Shown here one piece after another: positions 12,614 to 64,000 of a DNA stretch of 64,000 nucleotides. Origin of the DNA: a virus (lineage: Duplodnaviria; Caudoviricetes); IMG/VR virus record IMGVR_UViG_3300047160_002455, positions 13,048-77,047 of that record. The stretch is one strand, 5' to 3'. Under the pieces are notes generated by a model. That model saw only the letters and a program-made list of their open reading frames with translations. It did no database searches and had not been told where the DNA came from. Made by a program: the position numbers and the translations under genes. How positions within the stretch are numbered: the first letter of the stretch is position 1; each line of letters begins with the position of its first letter.

Positions 12614-13120
12614 ATCCCTTACGTCTACAATTTTCAGTCAAAACAAGTCGCTGAGAACTACGCCACGTCCGGCAGCGGCAACACCGAGATCGACTTTCTG
12701 TTTGTCAAACCCGGTGCAACCCGCGCCGTGGGCTTGCTCGCACTGCGCACCCAAGGCAAGGGTGCTGGTTTGACCGCCCTATCGGGCATTGAAATCCGCA
12801 TCAAGCAATGGATCAGCACGGCAAGCAGCGGCGGTACCGTCACCACCCCTGCGCCAGTCGATAAGCGCGCCCCTGCTGCTGCCGCGTCGATGGGGCAAGG
12901 CGCAGCGGGCGGTACCGGTGCGGTGACTTCGGGCACAGGCGGTCCCAACTATGTCGGTGGTACTGGCATGGGCGCAGCGGGTCCGGGTGGCTGGGTCGCG
13001 CCGAATGTGGACGCGCCGCCCTTCCTTGATGGCGGTGCCACTATGAGTCACGATCTCTTTTCGAGTTCGCCCACAGCGTCGTTGAACTTTGCCTACAACG
13101 GAGAAATCACGGAGAGTTAA
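12614..13120 (+). CDS. putative virion protein with non-canonical ATC start
   Basis: The frame of the listed 12728 ORF is open back to 12611. GAGGT SD at 12604-12608 precedes ATC CCT TAC GTC TAC (xPYVYNF...). Confidence 0.6.
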   Translation: MPYVYNFQSKQVAENYATSGSGNTEIDFLFVKPGATRAVGLLALRTQGKGAGLTALSGIEIRIKQWISTASSGGTVTTPAPVDKRAPAAAASMGQGAAGGTGAVTSGTGGPNYVGGTGMGAAGPGGWVAPNVDAPPFLDGGATMSHDLFSSSPTASLNFAYNGEITES

Positions 13121-47699: not shown

Positions 47700-48449
47700 T
47701 CAGTTCTTAACCCAGACCCTTTCGCAGTAGTTCATCTCTTTCCCCTTGTCCACGTTGGAAGCGCAGCGACTCACTTGTTTAAGATGTTGGAACGGCAGCC
47801 AGGTATCTTTGATCGTGCCGCAGACGATAACCTGTCCCTTCCGTGCCCGGCACCATGCCGCCAGTTGCTTGTAGTCGATCTCATGGTGGACGTAGTATAC
47901 CCCTTGCGATTGATACGGCGGGTCGATTAGCCACGTCGCCGCCTGATTCGGGCATTCCTCATAGCTCCCCTCACAGACGCGCCAATGCTTGATTTGGTTC
48001 ACTTGAGAGGCAATCCTAGCACGAATGACACTACCCCAGACGCAATCCACGCGCGTCTTGAGGTGCATCCACGGCGACGGTTTATTGCGTGGATGCTGCG
48101 ATCCCTTGGCGATCCACCAGCCGATTAGCCAGCGTGCCTCTTCGCATAAATGCGTTAGATCGTTGACGCGCCGAAACTTCAGAGGCAAAGCTAGGATCTC
48201 CGAAGGTTTGGCAGCGATTAGATACCGCCACAGCCCGACCACTTTCGGGTTCACGTCGTAAAGCAGCACCTTGCGGTTCGCATAGCGCAGAGCATAGGAC
48301 GCGCTGCCCGCAAACGGTTCCACAATGAGATTATGCTTCGGACGCGGATAGAACGGCACTAGCCGCCACTTGCTGCCGTAGTAGCTGAACATCGGCAGCA
48401 GGTCCGCGCCGCCGCGCCGCTTGATGCTGGCTGTAGATTTAGGGAGCAT
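47700..48449 (-). CDS. DNA adenine methyltransferase (Dam/D12 class, short)
   Basis: FSYYGSKW, EPFAGSA (motif I), IDPPY (motif IV). Start may be 48392. Confidence 0.85.
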   Translation of the reverse strand: MLPKSTASIKRRGGADLLPMFSYYGSKWRLVPFYPRPKHNLIVEPFAGSASYALRYANRKVLLYDVNPKVVGLWRYLIAAKPSEILALPLKFRRVNDLTHLCEEARWLIGWWIAKGSQHPRNKPSPWMHLKTRVDCVWGSVIRARIASQVNQIKHWRVCEGSYEECPNQAATWLIDPPYQSQGVYYVHHEIDYKQLAAWCRARKGQVIVCGTIKDTWLPFQHLKQVSRCASNVDKGKEMNYCERVWVKN

Positions 48450-49296
48450 AGACGAATCCGTTGACCAGCAAGACCTCCGGTGCAACTTCCCGCGCCGATC
48501 CGCGCTCCGTGGTGTGCAGATGCTTGTGGCGCGGACACTTGATTTTGCGCCACCCGCTATACAGATTGTTCAGTTGCGGCGCGTCGTAATAGCTGACCAC
48601 CACCCGCGCCTTGTGGAACCGCGATAGGGCGGTTGCCAGCCGCGAATGCTGCTCAGACGTAAAATCATACTCGAAACGACCGCCGCTTGACGTTGTTTCC
48701 GGCAAATAGGGCGGGTCGATGTACATAGAGACTTCTTTACGATCTTCGATTGAAGCTAGACACTCGAACAGATCCCGCCGCAAGATATGGACGTTTTTCA
48801 AGCGGTCCACCCAGGCAGGGATGGAATCCACGGCGCGGCGGAATCGCAAGGGACCACTGCCGCCGCCCGAAGTCCAGCGCGTCGCGATGCTATGCTTGAC
48901 CTTATCCGTTCCGATGATGCCGTTGCGCCCCATCCATGAAACAACGAAGTAGTGATATGCCCAGACCGCGCTGGGCGCATTTTTCTCCATGCACTGCAAT
49001 TCCTCGACAGAGCGCAAATAGAGATCGTCCTGATACATGGTCCGCTCCAGCATGTCGAATAGCTCCACCGACAGCTTGCCATCCTGCAGCACCCAGCACA
49101 GATTGGTGAGCGCGCCGTGCAGATCGCAAGCCATCTCATGGTGAGACGGCGGTTTCGCGAGCAAGACGGCAAGCGATCCACAGCACCCCTCGAAATAGAA
49201 TTGGTGCCGCCCCAGCTGCCGGATAATAAGAGGAGCCATCGTGCGCTTGGACCCGTACCAAGGCAGGATGGCTCCTAGCGGTCTTTTTCCAGGCAT
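48439..49296 (-). CDS. DNA adenine methyltransferase (Dam/D12 class)
   Basis: PWYGSK, EGCCGS (degenerate motif I), YIDPPY. Confidence 0.85.
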   Translation of the reverse strand: MPGKRPLGAILPWYGSKRTMAPLIIRQLGRHQFYFEGCCGSLAVLLAKPPSHHEMACDLHGALTNLCWVLQDGKLSVELFDMLERTMYQDDLYLRSVEELQCMEKNAPSAVWAYHYFVVSWMGRNGIIGTDKVKHSIATRWTSGGGSGPLRFRRAVDSIPAWVDRLKNVHILRRDLFECLASIEDRKEVSMYIDPPYLPETTSSGGRFEYDFTSEQHSRLATALSRFHKARVVVSYYDAPQLNNLYSGWRKIKCPRHKHLHTTERGSAREVAPEVLLVNGFVYAP

Positions 49297-49727
49297 TACG
49301 CCCCAGCTTTCAGTACCTTCCGCTTGTAACGGCGGTTGATCGAGATATCCTTTTCCCGCAGTTTCGGCAGACGCTTGTGTGCCTCCGCGTAGACTGCCAG
49401 CGCTTTGCGTCCACGATCCGTAATCTCGTAGACGGTCTCGTTGATGCCGTCCTCCGGTACTTTCAACTCCTCCTTAGACACCAAGCCACCAGGGACAAGT
49501 CCCGTTACCGATGCACCGTAGGAATCGCGACCGTTCAGCGCGGCAGTAATCGTGCCGCTGATTGCACTAATCCCGATGCGTTCACACAGCTTGGCGCGAG
49601 TCAGTGCCGGGGCAGGCGTGCCCACCGATAATACCCGCAAAATGCGGATTTGGGGCAGGCGCAACTTCGTTTGGACAGCACCGTTCTTCTTAGGGTGCTT
49701 CCGCCCAGGCTTCGTGACTTTCGGCAT
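49296..49727 (-). CDS. winged-helix DNA-binding protein
   Basis: QIRILRVL...TRAKLCERIG...GLV...YEITDRGRKAL. Confidence 0.65.
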   Translation of the reverse strand: MPKVTKPGRKHPKKNGAVQTKLRLPQIRILRVLSVGTPAPALTRAKLCERIGISAISGTITAALNGRDSYGASVTGLVPGGLVSKEELKVPEDGINETVYEITDRGRKALAVYAEAHKRLPKLREKDISINRRYKRKVLKAGA

Positions 49728-49835
49728 TGCAAAATGCTCCTTTCCTCGAAAAAGATAGTTGTCCTGAGGAACTTTCCTCACTGACAAATTATACGGCTGG
49801 GGTCGAGGCAAAGAAAGCAAAAAGTTAGTCCTCAC

Positions 49836-50339
49836 TTACGCGGAGAACGAAAAACCGCACTTGGGACACTCAAACTGCCGCGCTTTGCCGTTTGCCGGGG
49901 TTTCCGCTGGGACATACTCCCGCCGCAGCCTGAGAAGATCGTCCTGAGACCACCCCTGCTCAATCATCTGGGCATCCTCGACTAGCTCAGACACCCGTGC
50001 TACAGCGTCATAATCCCAACGCGCCAATTCGGCAGTCCGGTTGTCCGCGAGACTGTAGCCGATTGCCTTTCCCGCGTGAAAATTGACCCAGGTGACCGCG
50101 ATTTCGGTCCAACCCAGCTGACGTGCCGCCTCCAGCGTTCCATTGCCTGCAATCACTATCCTAGTGCGACGTTGCACCACTAGGGGCTTAGTCTGCCCAT
50201 AGGCAGCCAGCGAGCCCTTGATAGCGTCAATGTTCGCTTCGGGGTGCAAACGGGCGTTATTGGGGTTCAGCTGCAGGCGGTCGATAGCGACTACCTCGAC
50301 TTTAGACTTCCTGCCTACCAGGATGTTTGACTTTGGCAT
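49836..50339 (-). CDS. ParB/Srx-like protein with C-terminal zinc ribbon (methylase-associated type)
   Basis: LQLNPNNARLH...IDAIKGSL..YGQ.KPLVV...IAGNGTLEAA..LG, ADNRTAE, CPKCG. Confidence 0.85.
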   Translation of the reverse strand: MPKSNILVGRKSKVEVVAIDRLQLNPNNARLHPEANIDAIKGSLAAYGQTKPLVVQRRTRIVIAGNGTLEAARQLGWTEIAVTWVNFHAGKAIGYSLADNRTAELARWDYDAVARVSELVEDAQMIEQGWSQDDLLRLRREYVPAETPANGKARQFECPKCGFSFSA

Positions 50340-50364
50340 TCGATTGCCCCGATTCTTGCCTGCG

Positions 50365-51402
50365 CTATCTGAAAGTATGGCTAAACGAACAATGCGGGCT
50401 AAACCAGATTCGCTCCCGTCTACAATTCGCCTTGCCTTGGCTCTCGCTCTTGGACAGTGAAGCCATGCCCCCATTCGCCTTCCACGCCACGCATTTCCAA
50501 GATTGCGGCATAGTGTGCTCGCCTTCGTATCCGCATAGCGCTATGCGCAAGCGCGGGTCGTCCCCATGCTCAATCGCCCACTCGCGCACGTCGTGAGCGA
50601 CGGACAGCGAATCGACGCGGTAGCAGCCGTCTTCTCGATTCGCCGTATCCGCATATGGCGGGTCTAGGAAGATGCCGCAGGGCTTACCGCCAGCGAAAAA
50701 GTGCGATAGCGCATTGCCACTTCTGCCACCGCAAACCCGCCGCCAGTCACCGCAGCAGACGCGGACACGCCGCAGGCGTTCGCAGAGTGCCTGCATCCAG
50801 GCGTGTAAGCCTTGCTCGCCGCAGCCAGCGATACCATTTTCGCTCGGTGTATCGCGGCAGGATTTCTTGAGCACGCCCTCGCCCGCGTTGCTCAGGTGGA
50901 CGCACCGCCGCGATACTCCATTGGTGCTCGTTATCTGGACTAATTGGCGCACTCCATCCACTTCTTGAACTTGCCACGGTCCCTTGCCCGAACAGAACCC
51001 GCTGCCTATCCAGCACGCCACGCCCCAGCACCACCAGCCGGCAATTTTGGCGTCGTAGTATTCGGGGTCGCCTTCGAGCTTCGCTTGGAGTGAGTCCTTG
51101 CGCTCCACAAGCCATGCGTGCCGCGCGTGCAGATCGTTTTCATTCACTAACCAGTCGGCATATTGCGCGACTTCATCCGGCTTCGCTTGCACCGCGCGCC
51201 AGAAGTTGCAGACAAGACCGTCCACATCGTTGACCGTTTCGACCCCCTTAAACGGCTGCGGGCGATTGAGGAAGACCGCGCCCGAGCCGAAGAAGGGCTC
51301 AACGTAGCCGCGCACGTCGCCGAGGTGCTGCCAGACGGTTTCCGCGATGCGCGCCTTGCCGCCGAAATACGGAAAAGGTGCCAGGATGTTACTTTTTGGC
51401 AT
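50365..51402 (-). CDS. DNA adenine methyltransferase (Dam-like with insertion)
   Basis: FPYFGGK, YVEPFFGSG, ND.DGL..NFW, FLDPPY. Confidence 0.85.
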   Translation of the reverse strand: MPKSNILAPFPYFGGKARIAETVWQHLGDVRGYVEPFFGSGAVFLNRPQPFKGVETVNDVDGLVCNFWRAVQAKPDEVAQYADWLVNENDLHARHAWLVERKDSLQAKLEGDPEYYDAKIAGWWCWGVACWIGSGFCSGKGPWQVQEVDGVRQLVQITSTNGVSRRCVHLSNAGEGVLKKSCRDTPSENGIAGCGEQGLHAWMQALCERLRRVRVCCGDWRRVCGGRSGNALSHFFAGGKPCGIFLDPPYADTANREDGCYRVDSLSVAHDVREWAIEHGDDPRLRIALCGYEGEHTMPQSWKCVAWKANGGMASLSKSESQGKANCRRERIWFSPHCSFSHTFR

Positions 51403-52664
51403 TCTCCACCGCTCCGATCCGTAACTGCGCTATCTCGAAATACTCACCAGAGATTTCGATGCCGGTAAAGCAGAAACCTTCCCGCACAGCCGCCATGCCC
51501 GTAGAACCGGTGCCCATAAAGCAGTCCAGCACCACACCACCCGGTGGAGTCACCAGACGGCACAGATAAGGACATCAATGCCAGGTTCTTGACGGTTGGA
51601 TGCTTGTTTTCGACCTCTCCCATGTTGCGCTCACGGCGCGATGCCTTAGCGACATAGAAGAATCGAGACGCGCCCCCGGTGTCGCCATAGGTCGGTATCT
51701 CCTGTCCCGACCGCCTGCTGTCGGCGCGGTAACAGTTTTTCGATTTACCGGCACTCGCCCTCTTAATACACCCATGACCACTTGTTAGTTGCCCACTCTG
51801 CCTATCGAGCATGGCAACCGGGCAATCAGGGGTGCAGTCCCCATTGCAATCGTGCGACAGCACTACGTTTGCGGGGAAGCGCCCTAGCTGCTCTCCAGGT
51901 CTTGCTGTAGCGTACCGTTTTGGACTAGTCCTACTGATGAAACCGGGCTCACCGGGATGTCCTGAATATTTTCCCTGCCTTCGCCCTACTGACGGGGAAC
52001 CACCAGCGCAAGCGATCCGGCAACCGTCGATATTGAGCGCGCCCGTGCCCCACTTGAGCACGTTGGCAGCGACGCTTTTCTCAGACAACGGTTTCCGCGC
52101 CAAGATATAAAATTCGCAGGCTGGCTTCAGACCAGTTCCGAATCCCTGCCAGCGCTTGGCATCGTCCGATGTCGGCACATGCACAGGTTGCACCGTGCCC
52201 CAGTTTTCCAGCGTCCACGCATCCTGCCGATAGGTTGAAGCGCGCCGCCCCGACTTGACGGTCCCGGCAATCCGTGGCTCCCCAGCTGACTTGTCGATTG
52301 CCCTCGACACATCAAGCGACTTGGGGAATCCCTGCCCGAACAGGTGACTCACAATATCGCGGATGTCAAATCCGGCAGCTTCGATTGCCGTGGCGGTCCG
52401 ATGCGAGATGCGCGGCAATGCCCACACCAGACAATGCGCCCCAGGTTTCAGCACCCGATGGCACTCCCGCATTACGAGCGTCAACCATTCGATCCACTTT
52501 TCCGGTGACCCTTTATCCGAGTCCCAATGTAGACCCATAAAGTCAATCCCTGCCGGTGGATCGGTGACTAGGGAATCAAACACAGAGTCCGGAATCGTCT
52601 TGAGGATTTCCAGACAATCCCCTTGGTACAGGTCAATGCGCCGTCTTTGTCCTATCCGTGGCAT
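51389..52664 (-). pseudogene. beta-class N4/N6 DNA methyltransferase with +1 frameshift
   Basis: AGGAGGT SD. GDCL, VTDPP, HPTVK, then an extra T at 51568-51569. The shifted frame continues YLCRLVTPPGGVVLDCFMGTGSTG (motif I) to TAA at 51389. Confidence 0.8.
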
Positions 52665-54856
52665 TCGACCACCTCCTTGTAAAGACGCGCCAGGGGCAGC
52701 GTCAGCCGCCACTGGGGAACGCCGCCCACGTTCTTAACCGTGATTACCTTCAGACGCTTGAGATGCTTGAGTAGCTTAGACATCGTATGGTCCTCCTGAC
52801 CTAGTGCGACTGCTAGCGAGCTACTTGCCAATCCTACGTTGCCGGTGTCCCAAATCAAGCGCGCTATCTCTAATGCCAGCCCCCGCGCCGTGTCCAGAGC
52901 GACACAGCGAACGCGGCGCATAACTTCCTCATCCCAACCATCGCGGTTTAAGACCACCGCTAGACAGTTCGCTAACCGCGTCAATTGATACGACAAGCGC
53001 GAAGATAGCTCCTTATGCGCCTTCTCTTGCTGTTTGGGAGAGGGGCGGCTGCGCATATAGGACACAAACAGCGCTAGGTTGTAGAGTTCCTGCGCTTGCT
53101 CCTGCTCCGGATTGGGCAGCAAATCGAGCAATTGCTGGGCATTGCGGCGCAGGTAGCCGATGTAGCCGCCCGTCATTCCCCGTGCTGCCACGCGCTCAGG
53201 GGATGTGGCGGTTTCCGGTTTACCGTCCACTTGCAAGCGACTCTCGTAAGCAGCACGGTAGATGACGCGCAGACCGATTGCCTCTTCCAACTCCGCGCTG
53301 ATTTCATCGCAAATGACGGTATCTAGGAACCGTTCGCCCAGTTCGCTAGTGTCCAGTTCCCGCAGTGATTCCGTGCCGCTCAGCACTAGCGTAGTCCGCA
53401 ATCGCTCATAGCGGCGCGACATACCATGCCGGTAATGCGTCCGCGCCGTGCCATCGTACAAATCCCGCGCTTCTGCCAGGATTTGCTCACGGTTCGGTGC
53501 CTTTAGCAGCGTGTCCCCATCCTTGATTACCAGCGTCTTGTTCTGCACTTGAACTAACAGGCTGTAATCCTTTGATCCTTCCTTATCCTCCTTGTAACCC
53601 GAATGGAAACCCGTAAACGTGCTGATCGGATGGACATACTTCAGATTTGCCGCGAGCGCTTCGCACAGTTCCGATTTGCCGCTGCCGGGCGGACCGATTA
53701 CCTTGATCCACAGTTGGTCACCTACCAGCTGCGTAGAGACCACGGTTGCGAGCATTACCGATAGCGTTTGATCCAGTCGATCCGTCCAGGTCAAGACTTT
53801 GCGCCAGCTGTTGACTAACGATTTCCAATCCTTGCAATCACCGCAGCCTTCCTCCGATCCTTGCGGTTCTGACCGCCGCGAGGGAACTAACCAATCCTTG
53901 GGCACATCGTCAATCTTGCCTAGCAGCTGCTGCAGACGGTCCAAGCGCGGACCGAGTAAATCACCGCCCTCCGACAGCTGGTCGCGAACGTCGTAACCAC
54001 TGGGCAGCAAACGGTCGTAACCGTTCAATCCCCAGTTCAGATAGGAGATTTTTTGCGTGACGTTGCACAGAATCGAGGTTGCTTCTTGCATCGACTTGTA
54101 ACCTTGCCCAGCGATTACCCGCGATTCGTGTTTTCGTGGATGGTCATTGTCAAACAGCAAAATCGGATGCTTGCCTTCAAACAGCGACAGGAATTTATGC
54201 AGGCAGCTGACACCGCCGCAACTGGATACCGCGAGAACCGCCGCCCGCGTGCGCAGGTTGTCTCCGTTCGCGGTTGCCATCAGATCGGTGCCGGTGAACT
54301 TCGCGACGCCCAGCAATTCCCACAGAGCGAGCGCGTCCCAAATGCCTTCGCAGATGTAGACATCCTGCGCGCTGCGGTCCCAGAGCGGAATGCCGTGCAG
54401 TTTGTGGGTTAGCGTAGGTGTCGGCATACAAATCATGCGACCGTCTTTATTGGTGCGATAGCTGTAGAGTTGATTGATCTTGCCGTCAGCGTTGTAACCG
54501 GGAATCAGCCAGTCGCCCGTAAGCGCGGATATACAGACGCCCCAGTGCATCAAGGTTTCAGGGTAGAGTAGTTTGCGATTGACGGAGAGAAGGTTGTATT
54601 GTGCGTTGTTGGTTTCTTCGTCGCTTTTTGCGTGTAGTGATTGCAGAAAGGTGTAGATGTTGCCGCCGCCGTTTTCATTGCCTTCGTGACATTTCCAACA
54701 CTTCCACTTGCCGGTGCTTTTCTCGACTGAAAATTTGCCTTCCCTGCCGCAGAACGGGCAATCGCCCGCCGCTTGTTCCTTGTCCTCCTCCCAGGACAAC
54801 TCCAAACCGTGCCATAGGTACGGTACTAGCTTCTCCGGGGTTGAGGTTGTCGGCAT
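52652..54856 (-). CDS. primase-helicase (Zn finger + Toprim-like + AAA+/MCM-like)
   Basis: CPFC/CWKC, ICEGIWDA, LLFDND, GYDVRD, GPPGSGKS (Walker A), IKDGD, GERFL. Confidence 0.8.
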   Translation of the reverse strand: MPTTSTPEKLVPYLWHGLELSWEEDKEQAAGDCPFCGREGKFSVEKSTGKWKCWKCHEGNENGGGNIYTFLQSLHAKSDEETNNAQYNLLSVNRKLLYPETLMHWGVCISALTGDWLIPGYNADGKINQLYSYRTNKDGRMICMPTPTLTHKLHGIPLWDRSAQDVYICEGIWDALALWELLGVAKFTGTDLMATANGDNLRTRAAVLAVSSCGGVSCLHKFLSLFEGKHPILLFDNDHPRKHESRVIAGQGYKSMQEATSILCNVTQKISYLNWGLNGYDRLLPSGYDVRDQLSEGGDLLGPRLDRLQQLLGKIDDVPKDWLVPSRRSEPQGSEEGCGDCKDWKSLVNSWRKVLTWTDRLDQTLSVMLATVVSTQLVGDQLWIKVIGPPGSGKSELCEALAANLKYVHPISTFTGFHSGYKEDKEGSKDYSLLVQVQNKTLVIKDGDTLLKAPNREQILAEARDLYDGTARTHYRHGMSRRYERLRTTLVLSGTESLRELDTSELGERFLDTVICDEISAELEEAIGLRVIYRAAYESRLQVDGKPETATSPERVAARGMTGGYIGYLRRNAQQLLDLLPNPEQEQAQELYNLALFVSYMRSRPSPKQQEKAHKELSSRLSYQLTRLANCLAVVLNRDGWDEEVMRRVRCVALDTARGLALEIARLIWDTGNVGLASSSLAVALGQEDHTMSKLLKHLKRLKVITVKNVGGVPQWRLTLPLARLYKEVVECHG

Positions 54857-58482: not shown

Positions 58483-58770
58483 CTATTGAATCACGACACC
58501 AAGGATTTCGTCCTCAATCATGCAAAGGAACTCCCCTTCATCGGCGCGGATTTTCCGCCCGCTGACATCGGCAACGACCTCGACTAAATCCCCTTCTTTC
58601 ACCTGTTTACACTCTGGACCGATGCCGACTACCCGCGCTTTGGTCGGATGCGACATATCCAGTCCAGACTGCGCCGGTAAGACCAGACCCGCTTTCGTCT
58701 TGGTCTCCGTCAACAGTTCCATCAGCACTTTTTTGCCGACAGGTTTGATCCATGCTTTAGCGCGCTCCAT
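58483..58770 (-). CDS. groES: co-chaperonin GroES (Cpn10)
   Basis: IKPVGKKVL...KTKAGLVLP...ARVVGIGP...VKEGD.V...EDEILGVV. Confidence 0.85.
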   Translation of the reverse strand: MERAKAWIKPVGKKVLMELLTETKTKAGLVLPAQSGLDMSHPTKARVVGIGPECKQVKEGDLVEVVADVSGRKIRADEGEFLCMIEDEILGVVIQ

Positions 58771-58786: not shown

Positions 58787-58825
58787 AAAAAAATGCCTCT
58801 CCCCTGTCTCGATTATCGGGGTGGC
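58787..58825 (-). terminator. intrinsic terminator after solitary repeat unit
   Basis: GCC-CCCC...GGGG-GGC stem followed by T7 on the - strand. Confidence 0.55.
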
Positions 58826-58885
58826 TGCCATACCTTGCCACATGATGCCTTTCCCCGACCCACCACAGCGTGCCATACCTCAGAC
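58821..58885 (-). ncRNA. solitary GGY-NN guide-like unit
   Basis: Same anchor (GGCA-GCC) and 11 in-phase pentamers as the large array. Starts at the AAA gene stop codon. Confidence 0.7.
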
Positions 58886-59761: not shown

Positions 59762-60041
59762 GGGGTCTCTCCATCATTGCCTTTGAAAGCGCCCCCAGTG
59801 CCGCCAGTATCTTCAAGGTTGCCTCGTCCCGGTCGGCAATCTGTTTTACTTCCGCTAGCTGTTTCTCCGTCAGGGGTGGACCAACCGCCCCCTCGCTAGC
59901 AAGCCATTCTTGGCACTGCAGGCATTCCCGCCAGTGTGCGTAGACGATAGCGCGTAACAGCGTCGGCACGTCACCGAAGTTATTGCCGGTGCATACGTCA
60001 CGGAACTCTTGGCACGTCACCTTTTCCCGGTGCATCTCCAT
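59688..60041 (-). CDS. small protein with anti-sigma-type zinc finger (zf-HC2-like)
   Basis: TCQEFRD...AHWRECLQCQEWL (C...HxxxCxxC). Confidence 0.55.
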   Translation of the reverse strand: MEMHREKVTCQEFRDVCTGNNFGDVPTLLRAIVYAHWRECLQCQEWLASEGAVGPPLTEKQLAEVKQIADRDEATLKILAALGALSKAMMERPHASSDQTVPKGGETPPTAADPCHE

Positions 60042-60213
60042 GTCCTCCTGCTGCTCTTAGTTTCGCTTCGTGGACCTCCAGACGATCAATTGTAATCTCT
60101 TTCGGCGCGGTTATGCCCAGCCTCGACATTCCCTGCCGCGCTTCCAGCACCTCAACTCGGATGTTTCCAGCAATTACGATAACCTCACCCACCTGCCGGG
60201 TTAAGACAAGCAT
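59998..60213 (-). CDS. csrA: carbon storage regulator CsrA/RsmA homolog
   Basis: MLVLTRQVGEVIVIAGNIRVEVL...RLGITAPKEITIDRLEV. Confidence 0.9.
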   Translation of the reverse strand: MLVLTRQVGEVIVIAGNIRVEVLEARQGMSRLGITAPKEITIDRLEVHEAKLRAAGGHGDAPGKGDVPRVP

Positions 60214-61377: not shown

Positions 61378-61409
61378 AAAAAAGCAGGGATGCCGGGCAG
61401 CATCGCCCT
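61378..61409 (-). terminator. intrinsic terminator closing the repeat array
   Basis: AGGG-ATGC/GCAT-CCCT stem followed by T6 on the - strand, right after the last array unit. Confidence 0.6.
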
Positions 61410-61422
61410 AACCTTTCTGTGC

Positions 61423-64000
61423 TTAACCCGGCACCCTGCGCTCTCCCGTGACCGCCCAGACGCGCCTAAACCCATCCTAACTAAGCACGACAGAGCACGG
61501 CATGGCTGCCATGTCTGGGCTCGTCTGACCAAAGCAGACCCAGACGCGCCTTACACCTCGACTGCCACACCATACCACGAAACGTCTCACCAAGTCTCAA
61601 CAGACCCCGCCTTGGATGCCGCGCCAGACCAAAACCCGGCTTGCCCCGCCCAGACCTGCCTCGACTGCCACGCCTCACCGGAGCCAAACTCACCCCGGCA
61701 GAACTTGACAAACCCGGACATGGCAGCCTCGACTGACCGCGCCTCTCCTTTCCAGGGCTTACCCGGACTAGACCGCCAGACCAATCCTAACCTGACCGCG
61801 CCTCGACTCTCCATGTCATGACAGGGCAGGACTCGACTGCCTCACCAGACAGGCAACTGTCCATGTCTCGACTCCTCAAGACACACCACAGCAAGCGTCA
61901 TCATGACCGCCTTGCCTCAGCTAAGCTAAACAGGACACAGCTTGACTAAACTGACCATGACCGCCTTACCATAGGTAACCCGGACACACCTGGACAGCCT
62001 AGCCGAACCCAGACATGAAACCATGACTGCCACACCAAGCGCAGACACACCGGACCACTCCTAAACGTGTCTCAGCTTGCCATGACCGCCACGACATACC
62101 CCACCTTAATAAGACTCACCTCGACTCGACAAACCATGTCTGCCGCGCCCCACCCAGCCTGACCGCGTCTCGACTCTCCAGACCATGCCATAACGCGCCA
62201 AGACTGCCGAAACTCACCGTGACATACGCCACCTGTCCTCGTGGCAACATGCCACTCCGTAGCCGGGCAGACCAAACCTCGACTGCCAAGACTTACCTTG
62301 CGACAGCTTGCCAATCCATAGCATACCGCGCCTTAGCGTGACTGCCACAACGGACCATGCCTTGACTCAGCGCAGCTTTCCCTGCCACAGCGCAGATGCC
62401 ACAACACACGAGACCAGTCCCAGACATATCGCGACTCGCGACACCAAGACCGCCGAGCCAAACCCAGACACAGGACTCCGTTCCTTGCCTTAGCCTACCA
62501 TAGCCCTCCATGACTTACCTAACCACACCAGAGCAGCCCAAACTCACCGTGACTTGCCCCGCCGATCCCCGACGTGCGCCGCCGCGCCAGCGAGACCATG
62601 CCTTGCGAAGCCCGACGTAGCCTTACCCGGACACACCTAGACTGCCAAGCCGAAGCTAACGCCGCCTCTCCCGAACCGGACAGACCTCGACACGGCATGA
62701 CTGCCAAGCGTCACCGGACCTCAGCACGGCACACCAAGACAGACCCGGCATTGCCTCGACTGCGCTACCACAACACACCGTGCCTAGCCCAGTCCAGAGC
62801 AACCGAAGCGCGACTGCCAAACCAAGCCAGAACTGACCACCCCGCGCTACACCGTGCATTGCGGTGCCTGAGCAGCGCAGCCAGACCCTGACTCAACCAG
62901 CCTCTTCTTGGCTAGTCACACCAAGTCAGCCTCACCCCGACTTAACTCGACTTGTGAAAGCCGAACCAGGGCAGCCTGACCCGACCTAGCCTTGACCGAT
63001 CCAGACACACCTGAGCGCGACTGGGATACCATGCCTCAACATTCCATGCCGCAACAGGGCTGTCCGAGACTGACCTTGGCATGTCACGACCGCCTAGAGA
63101 AGACACGACCTTCCCAGACGAAACATGCTGCACCACGGCAGCGTTACCGCGCCAGGTCTCAACAGACCATTCCGCGCCAGGGCTCGTGTTGCCCTACCTC
63201 GACTGCCGCGCCAGGTCTGACCGTGACAAAACCCGTCTCTCCAGAACGCGCCACGGCAGCGGTGCCTTACCAAGACTAGACGCTCCTCAACTGCCTAAGC
63301 GCGCCTCTCCTCAACTCACCGAGACAGAACACGGCAGCCTAACCCTGCCAGGGCGGACGTAGCCAGGGATGCCATAACGCGCCTTTCCATGTCATTCCTT
63401 ACCAAGCCGTGCGCCACCGGACCCAGACGCACCATAGCACGCCCAGACCGGACACGACAGCCAGACCATGCGCCAACGGAAGCCAACTCAACTCTCCAGA
63501 CCACAGCGCGACATGGCTGCCACGCCCCGCCGCTGCCCGACGTACCTAGACCAGACTTGACAGCCACAGCTTACCAAGCCGGGACGGAACTCAGCGCAAC
63601 AGAACATAACAAACCTCGACTGCCGTACCCCGCCAAGCCGGAACGGAACTTAACGTAACACGGCATGACAGGACTCACCATGACCGCCATGCGCTGCCAC
63701 GCCTTTCCTTATCGGGATCGTGACATAGCAGACCAGGGCTGCCATAGCTTGCCTTCACACGACTGAGCACAGCTAGCCATGTCTGCCACACCTAACCGGG
63801 GCGGACCTCTCCCAGACTAACCAAGACAGCCTAGCCATGCCTAGACTCTAGGACAGGACTTGCCATAACACACCGTGTCTGCCGCAACCCACCGTACCAG
63901 ACCGCGCCCGGACTCGACTGCCGAACCTGACCCCGCCCGACCCTGCCGGGACGAAACAGAACGCACCGGACCCAGACTGCCGGAACGCACCGGGACAATC
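61423..64000 (-). repeat. array of about 45 GGY-NN pentamer units (putative non-contiguous guide RNA array, VIPR-like); runs off window edge
   Basis: Strict 5-nt periodicity (- strand GGY+NN, with variants GTC/GTT/GCT/GAC/GGA). A 4-nt anchor GGCR/GGCT plus GTC/GCC resets the phase every 6-17 pentamers. No credible ORF. NN positions decode to conserved protein motifs. Confidence 0.92.

Follow-up and report, generated by a model that had tools for sequence, protein, structure and literature searches.

A long staggered VIPR array of a soil phage with guides that read as DNA methyltransferase motif IV

The DNA analysed here is the final 64 kb (positions 13,048 to 77,047) of a 77,047-bp contig of a virus of the class Caudoviricetes, IMG/VR record IMGVR_UViG_3300047160_002455; we refer to this stretch of 64,000 nucleotides (nt) as the window, the end of which is also the end of the contig. 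The window closes with a staggered array of vrRNAs, the guides of VIPR ("Viral Interference Programmable Repeat"), a phage system of RNA-guided DNA silencing first described in 2026 (10.64898/2026.04.26.720920). An earlier note, made from the sequence alone, had singled out five units of this array, and we find that three of them specify motif IV of DNA methyltransferases. We think it probable that each of the five units is a guide of its own in a very long, minus-strand vrRNA array of a soil phage, the most likely use of which is the silencing of methyltransferase and restriction-modification (R-M) genes on foreign DNA. The structure itself is of a known kind; the new element is the target repertoire, which consists of universal enzyme motifs, with DNA methyltransferases prominent among them.

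The array and its grammar

In the published system, a small RAMP protein, Vipr, acts with vrRNAs of 9-16 YNNGG repeats; the protein buries the GGY triplets and the dinucleotide (NN) pairs bind double-stranded DNA with one base skipped between pairs. The skipped target base is usually the wobble position of a codon, and binding represses transcription (10.64898/2026.04.26.720920). By cryo-electron microscopy, the thumb of each protomer was seen to flip out three guide bases and one target base, which results in a 5-versus-3 geometry (10.64898/2026.04.26.720927). A figure legend of the first paper describes arrays termed 'staggered', whose successive vrRNAs overlap by 1 nt, each one beginning where its predecessor ends (10.64898/2026.04.26.720920, fig. 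S18).

In the window, we observed a shift in base composition and a strong 5-nt period over positions 61381-64000, with a lag-5 identity of 0.41 (61400-64000) versus 0.24 in two coding control regions. Parsing the minus strand with a hidden Markov model (HMM) yielded 49 units, each composed of a 4-nt junction and 3-18 pentamers, ten pentamers being the commonest length. The pentamers have the form NN-G-(G/T/C)-(T/C) and the junctions the form [A/T/G]-G-[T/C/A]-C, most frequently AGTC, with a GGC linker always preceding. This grammar is read directly from the letters: the 49-unit, guide-like array of period 5 is confirmed, as are the five dinucleotide strings of the earlier note, which are correct letter for letter when read on the minus strand as GGC and an N-G-N-C junction followed by pentamers. 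The same note had proposed guide-like RNAs whose gapped code uses two bases in five and leaves out the wobble base. That proposal is borne out and, because the code is the published VIPR rule, the code as such is not new.

The array resembles published VIPR (SUSP1, P. fulva prophage, type II) in its pentamers, which combine a fixed G-rich triplet with a variable NN pair, in the one-base skip on the wobble position, in being phage-borne and in having no self-targets; GGY-like triplets alternate with hypervariable NN pairs throughout. It differs in having a looser triplet (84% of its 476 linkers are G-N-Y, only 45% GGY) and in its size, the SUSP1 array having four guides against 49 or more here. 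In SUSP1-type II arrays, moreover, a structured 3' tail of about 40 nt with a pseudoknot stands between guides, whereas the present array has only the 4-nt junction: the invariant tail was not found, the units lying 4 nt apart with no Rfam match, and scans of the stretch for Rfam families and tRNAs returned neither. The guides abut, and the last pentamer, C-AG-TC, lends its final C to the first pentamer of the next guide, which corresponds to the 1-nt overlap of the 'staggered' arrays as the figure legend describes them.

Among other systems, class 1 CRISPR Cas7 filaments are, like those of VIPR, RAMP filaments that form on a guide RNA and flip bases periodically; phage-encoded CRISPR arrays directed against rivals are likewise guide arrays that serve conflicts between mobile elements. 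However, Cas7 filaments pair contiguously (5+1), whereas VIPR pairs two of five bases on the guide against two of three on the target, and the present array, unlike CRISPR, has no repeat-spacer structure, cas genes or known acquisition machinery. Early ideas of quintuplet translation, a TRAP-like RNA sponge or telomere-like repeats were dropped given the published VIPR system.

Relationship to Vipr-linked arrays

At least 119 IMG/VR contigs contain the GGCAGTC junction with seven G-N-Y pentamers after it, and almost all of them hold true arrays; 93 of these arrays (within loci L002-L120) were parsed, giving 871 units. Clustering of the neighbouring open reading frames (ORFs) of the 93 arrays revealed a gene of about 224 amino acids (aa) in 66 loci and one of about 169 aa in 60, both mostly just upstream on the array strand (60 of the 66 loci for the 224-aa gene). 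The 224-aa family is homologous to the "SUSP1 Vipr protein" (PDB 36pp chain D), with an E value of 9e-12 for one member and of 5.6e-18 for the profile, and its G-loop, GVGEWRP..FGRF, aligns with GVGDWRP..FGRF of SUSP1. Arrays of the same type are thus linked to a Vipr homologue in 66 of 93 cases, a kinship that we observe directly. In 60 loci the gene for the 169-aa protein (FEWDD...YRxxQARxLI) stands between vipr and the array; the protein has no Pfam family, and presumably it is the clade's accessory Vap. With its 49 guides in the window, the present array exceeds every one of the 93 related arrays (median 9, maximum 28). Assemblies often break exactly at such arrays, for example in locus L313.

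Guides that specify methyltransferase motif IV

A guide that skips the wobble position of every codon effectively spells out a peptide, with ambiguity introduced by the split codon boxes (D/E, N/K, F/L, I/M, H/Q). Units are named here by their upper coordinate (Table 1). Reversed patterns served as controls for genome scans and shuffles for motifs and convergence; the genome samples were all drawn from the phylum of one soil metagenome-assembled genome (MAG). The earlier note had read motif IV of DNA methyltransferases in three units, and the genes that these units match bear the reading out.

Searched as a pattern of NN pairs each followed by a skipped base (NNx), unit 63828 is matched exactly in at least 119 viral contigs. 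All of the matches listed read F/LYCDPPYV on the sense strand, and 115 of the 119 listed lie in frames of at least 150 codons; all six ORFs tested belong to PF02086, the D12-class N6-adenine methylases. In 151 bacterial genomes of the sampled phylum the unit gave no signal, with one match versus three control matches.

Unit 63621, with up to three base mismatches allowed, matched 14 of 151 genomes (about 9%), with none for the reversed pattern. These matches read D[FY][IV]LANPPFN[VM] at an NN identity of 9-10 of 11, the five ORFs tested all combine HsdM_N and N6_Mtase, and one match lies inside an hsdM-hsdS-SIR2-hsdR operon. When the D/N position of the core was relaxed, we found 34 exact matches in viral or proviral contigs, all with N, 24 of them with an HsdS-like and 12 with an HsdR-like neighbour. 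A single base separates the unit from the most common hsdM motif IV, so that this motif would count as a target under the threshold of the VIPR paper, at least 80% NN identity.

The third unit, 63685, has one exact match in 185,579 species genomes (locus L121), in frame and on the sense strand; it falls in a chromosomal 595-aa ORF (N6_Mtase, 2.8e-36) of a soil Solirubrobacterales MAG. At up to three base mismatches, the unit matched 4 of 401 genomes, in N6_Mtase or N6_N4_Mtase genes, versus 0 for the reversed pattern.

The matches, which are direct observations, fall in the assumed codon register throughout: 119 of 119 listed for the Dam-type unit, 34 of 34 for the hsdM core and the single match of the NPPF unit 63685 in L121. 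Natural matches therefore follow the 1-nt skip on the wobble position. The comparison with other skip lengths covered VIPR loci and the phage's own genome; there, none of the rules produced matches.

The motifs are also more frequent than chance predicts. [DN]PP[FYW] is found in three units versus 0.04 expected from within-unit shuffles (0 of 1000 reach three), DExH/D in three units versus 0.5 expected (9 of 1000 shuffles), and KGLEF in one unit versus 0.00 expected from within-unit shuffles. No [DN]PP[FYW] occurs in any of the 871 units of the 93 sister arrays, so that the methyltransferase guides appear peculiar to this phage. Walker A-like units (GxGK[ST]), for their part, are enriched in the sister units (7 versus 0.46 expected), and targeting of ATPase P-loops may be general in this VIPR clade.

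One could suppose that the array is a non-functional pentanucleotide satellite and its peptide readings pareidolia, given the decoding freedom of the split codon boxes and the two of five units to which no family can be assigned. The in-frame sense matches (119 of 119 listed and 34 of 34) already contradict this, the shuffle tests and the empty reversed-pattern controls of units 63621 and 63685 speak against it as well, and homologous arrays adjoin Vipr genes; we give it almost no credence.

Table 1. Features of the window discussed in the text (NN, dinucleotide)
Feature	Position	Strand	Reading and basis
VIPR vrRNA array, 'staggered' architecture	61381..64000	-	Period-5 signal, HMM parse; 49 units, cut at contig end
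Intrinsic terminator	61380..61404	-	Hairpin and T-run; closes array ahead of PD-(D/E)XK nuclease gene
Guide unit 63518	63460..63518	-	11 NN, IAVLDDGPGIL; G1 box of HATPase_c as in sensor histidine kinases
Guide unit 63562	63519..63562	-	AA TG TA AC GG GC GG GT; parse
Guide unit 63621	63563..63621	-	11 NN, DFILADPPFNV; one base off type I HsdM motif IV consensus DFILANPPFNV
Guide unit 63685	63622..63685	-	12 NN, IDLIVTNPPFGT; motif IV, PF02384 N6_Mtase family (type IIG-like/HsdM family)
Guide unit with 1-nt phase slip	63686..63740	-	LL[IM]T~P[KN][KN]V[SR][IM]; parse
Guide unit 63784	63741..63784	-	AT TA GT CA GT AA AA AT (8 NN); sequence confirmed
Guide unit 63828	63785..63828	-	TT TA TG GA CC CC TA GT = [FL]YCDPPYV; motif IV, D12/Dam-class N6-adenine methyltransferases
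Solitary unit	58821..58885	-	11 in-phase pentamers GA AT AC GT GG GG AA AT GT AA AT; ggc-AGCC junction, T-run

Self and non-self

In the phage itself, four methylase genes follow one another (47700-52712, minus strand), three of the D12 class and one N6_N4. The motifs of the three D12 enzymes, IFLDPPYA, MYIDPPYL and WLIDPPYQ, share only 4-5 of 8 NN with the Dam-type guide; these genes are spared because their flanking codons differ. Across the phage's own genome, the best matches of the guides equal those of shuffled controls, and there is no self-targeting at 80% NN identity or above. Other VIPR loci, besides satellites and prophage regulators, make up the natural VIPR targets on record; in 1.15 Mb of such loci we found no cross-targeting. 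Nor did the other guides match the flanks of the hsdM, N6_Mtase and Dam loci above shuffle level.

From the matches we infer which genomes may be the real targets. The Dam-type guide maps to phage-borne orphan methylases, the hsdM-type guide both to cellular chromosomes and to viral or proviral contigs, and the supposed GHKL guide to histidine kinases. That the exact Dam-type targets are phage-borne favours a conflict between phages, in which a rival's protective methylase would be silenced. The earlier note had suggested interference with defence genes or with competitors; of this, methyltransferase targeting by three units stands, the defence reading of the GHKL unit does not, and the Dam-type targets favour the competitor option. 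Anti-defence is only partly supported, and competing phages or other mobile elements are at least as likely an object.

Anti-defence proper would mean that the guides silence R-M and other defence operons of the host (type I hsdM-hsdS-hsdR and others), so that the phage DNA, or progeny in neighbouring cells, escapes restriction. The hsdM matches of unit 63621 at 9-10 of 11 NN in about 9% of the bacterial genomes sampled, the one match in a complete hsdM-hsdS-SIR2-hsdR operon and the chromosomal location, in a soil MAG, of the only exact match of the NPPF unit all argue for such a role. However, enzyme made beforehand stays in place despite transcriptional repression, which weakens a purely anti-host-restriction role; the exact Dam-type targets are orphan methylases of phages, no guide matches hsdR or hsdS beside the hsdM matches, and the unit thought to address a defence ATPase points to histidine kinases. 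We regard anti-defence proper as unlikely, though worth keeping in view. The protein anti-restriction factors Ocr and ArdA, and phage-borne orphan methylases, would belong to the same conflict over DNA methylation and restriction; they act immediately, on enzymes or DNA, whereas the array would act on genes, by repression.

The remaining flagged units

Unit 63518 had been taken in the earlier note for a GHKL ATPase of defence systems, a reading that failed. Near matches of the form I.V.D.GPGI occur in 40 of 201 genomes, a count that takes in genome G175 (unpublished) without any conclusion here depending on it, and the ORFs tested are sensor histidine kinases, an ordinary signalling and regulatory family: seven of seven carry HATPase_c and six also HisKA. 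For the eight-NN unit 63784, in which the QxK motif of Mrr-like nucleases had been seen, IYVQVK(K/N)I is one of many decodings; in 2.7 Mb of loci, this unit and unit 63562 gave nothing beyond shuffle level at an NN identity of 7 of 8 or higher. The DEAH unit 61838 matched 0 of 121 genomes at up to three mismatches.

In locus L159 (3264-16819), the hsdS and hsdR genes of a type I R-M operon flank an inserted SIR2_2 gene. The operon lies next to a UvrD-like helicase that carries a fused IrrE/M78 peptidase domain, and the KGLEF guide matches this helicase at 8 of 10 NN.

Elsewhere in the array, the 16-NN unit at 62452-62535 (minus strand) reads as LVY[KN]IGIS[KN][KN]TVV.., resembling a helix-turn-helix segment of a regulator, and the unit at 62644-62702 as IVDLRREGYS.., resembling region 4 of a sigma factor.

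The locus beyond the contig end

The Vipr proteins linked to the sister arrays are homologous to that of SUSP1; in the present case, differing from published VIPR, the phage's own vipr gene is not seen on the 77-kb contig, which stops inside the array, on its upstream side. HMMs of the Vipr and Vap families found no homologue on this contig (E above 1), and profile searches with both families returned no protein of this phage. A candidate, P0140, was rejected as belonging to another phage. An exact unit and the last 36 nt of the contig, searched in viral and metagenome collections, found nothing.

A Logan contig of 1,164 nt from one soil run extends 1,066 nt past the window end, and a 124,996-bp contig of the same phage in ENA assembly ERZ27257208 encodes the identical PD-(D/E)XK protein. 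From upstream to downstream, the gene map of the latter comprises a uracil-DNA glycosylase (UDG)-intein gene, a 277-aa gene, a 161-aa gene, a gene-free gap of about 3 kb and the nuclease; the 277-aa and 161-aa genes have no Pfam matches. This map suggests that the VIPR locus continues beyond the contig end in the order vipr-vap-array, as in the sister loci.

Outside the array, between an AAA_24 gene and a Cpn10 gene, lies the solitary vrRNA-like unit of Table 1, which is similar to the 'solo vrRNAs' that the VIPR paper of October 2026 describes (10.64898/2026.10.15.759431). In that paper, vrRNAs of satellites and VIPR-null phages hijack or misdirect the Vipr of other phages. By this precedent, the phage might have no Vipr of its own and its array might be an orphan, the vrRNAs of which misdirect the Vipr of others; the missing vipr and vap genes and the solitary unit would fit. 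The contig, however, simply ends within the array, the longer assemblies have, immediately upstream of it, two genes on the same strand that are of the sizes expected, and 49 or more guides are far above the reported solo loci. We consider an orphan array very improbable.

Occurrence and variation of the array

The phage is present in soil metagenomes of at least 19 studies, all 24 sequencing runs listed with it being DNA; the GenBank phage collection gave no match, and a relative, L001, has the PD-(D/E)XK gene in common without an array. In contigs from soil samples (four runs), array units are joined to other neighbours at 61655, 62016, 63897 and 63914, and 96 nt are skipped at 61428-61525; two longer assemblies have gaps of about 3.0 kb and 3.4 kb where the array should be. 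From the alternative junctions, the skip and the differing gap sizes, it follows that guide content varies between populations. Gene maps of identical contigs place a CsrA-like gene (59998-60213) and a Cpn10 (GroES)-like gene (58483-58770), both on the minus strand, in the replication module.

Discussion

We infer that the array is expressed and its guides loaded by Vipr. One Vipr (RAMP) protomer would bind each G-N-Y triplet and expose the NN pair, and the filament would then pair with double-stranded DNA carrying the same NN pairs one skipped base apart, forming a gapped R-loop that would block transcription. Three guides would in this way address motif IV of DNA adenine methyltransferases (D12/Dam class, type I HsdM and N6_Mtase), and the foreign DNA silenced would be that of co-infecting or resident phages, of other mobile elements or possibly of the host.

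Several points weigh against silencing of methyltransferase or R-M genes as the purpose of the array, among them the missing vipr homologue described above. The histidine-kinase guide (unit 63518) fits no methyltransferase or defence theme, and unit 63621 differs by one base from every hsdM seen. Exact targets are missing for three units in the collections searched: the NPPF unit has none in viral or metagenome contig collections, the DPPF unit 63621 none in viral contigs or in the MAG that holds the NPPF match, and the KGLEF unit none in viral contigs. Restriction enzymes already present when the phage arrives cannot be removed by transcriptional silencing. Finally, no locus is matched by more than one guide above shuffle level, while published arrays converge on one element.

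This last point bears on another explanation, namely that the guides aim at one particular unsampled competitor, be it a sister phage, a satellite or a plasmid; the likeness to universal motifs would then reflect a preference for codons that cannot mutate, and the database matches would be homologues and not targets. The arrays of the first VIPR paper converge on a single satellite or prophage (10.64898/2026.04.26.720920), and published arrays favour active-site codons. Full-length exact matches are very rare, the 12-NN unit having none in viral contigs, none in metagenomes and one in genomes, and the 93 related arrays lack any [DN]PP[FYW] unit. Set against this, the eight-NN Dam unit has exact matches in at least 119 unrelated viral contigs, and the coverage of three methylase classes looks more like a panel than like one genome. 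We regard a single competitor as a real but distinctly less probable alternative to the silencing of methyltransferase and R-M genes on foreign DNA at large.

More speculatively, the phage may use VIPR as a family-level silencer of DNA methylation genes. Its guides would sit on invariant catalytic codons, such that one guide covers hundreds of unrelated rivals, and a panel of some 50-60 guides (three methylase classes, SF1/SF2 helicase motifs, Walker A) would leave competitors or R-M modules unprotected, with the phage's own methylases recoded out of reach. We put this forward tentatively, as a possibility with the odds against it.

We stress that what sets this array apart from published VIPR, the targets of which are one satellite or prophage, is that its guides read as universal enzyme motifs. 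Methyltransferases are not mentioned as VIPR targets in the published VIPR descriptions searched, and this is the first case that we have found of VIPR guides spelling such motifs, motif IV of DNA methyltransferases included. It provides concrete guide-target pairs, FYCDPPYV with D12 methylases and DFILA(D/N)PPFNV with hsdM. If the targets are real, the wobble-skipping code does more than block escape by synonymous mutation, and one guide could reach a whole protein family across unrelated genomes, which is what the phage would gain. Silencing at the level of families, if true, would amount to RNA-guided 'epigenetic warfare' and would be the first VIPR repertoire of broad spectrum, in contrast to those directed at a single element.

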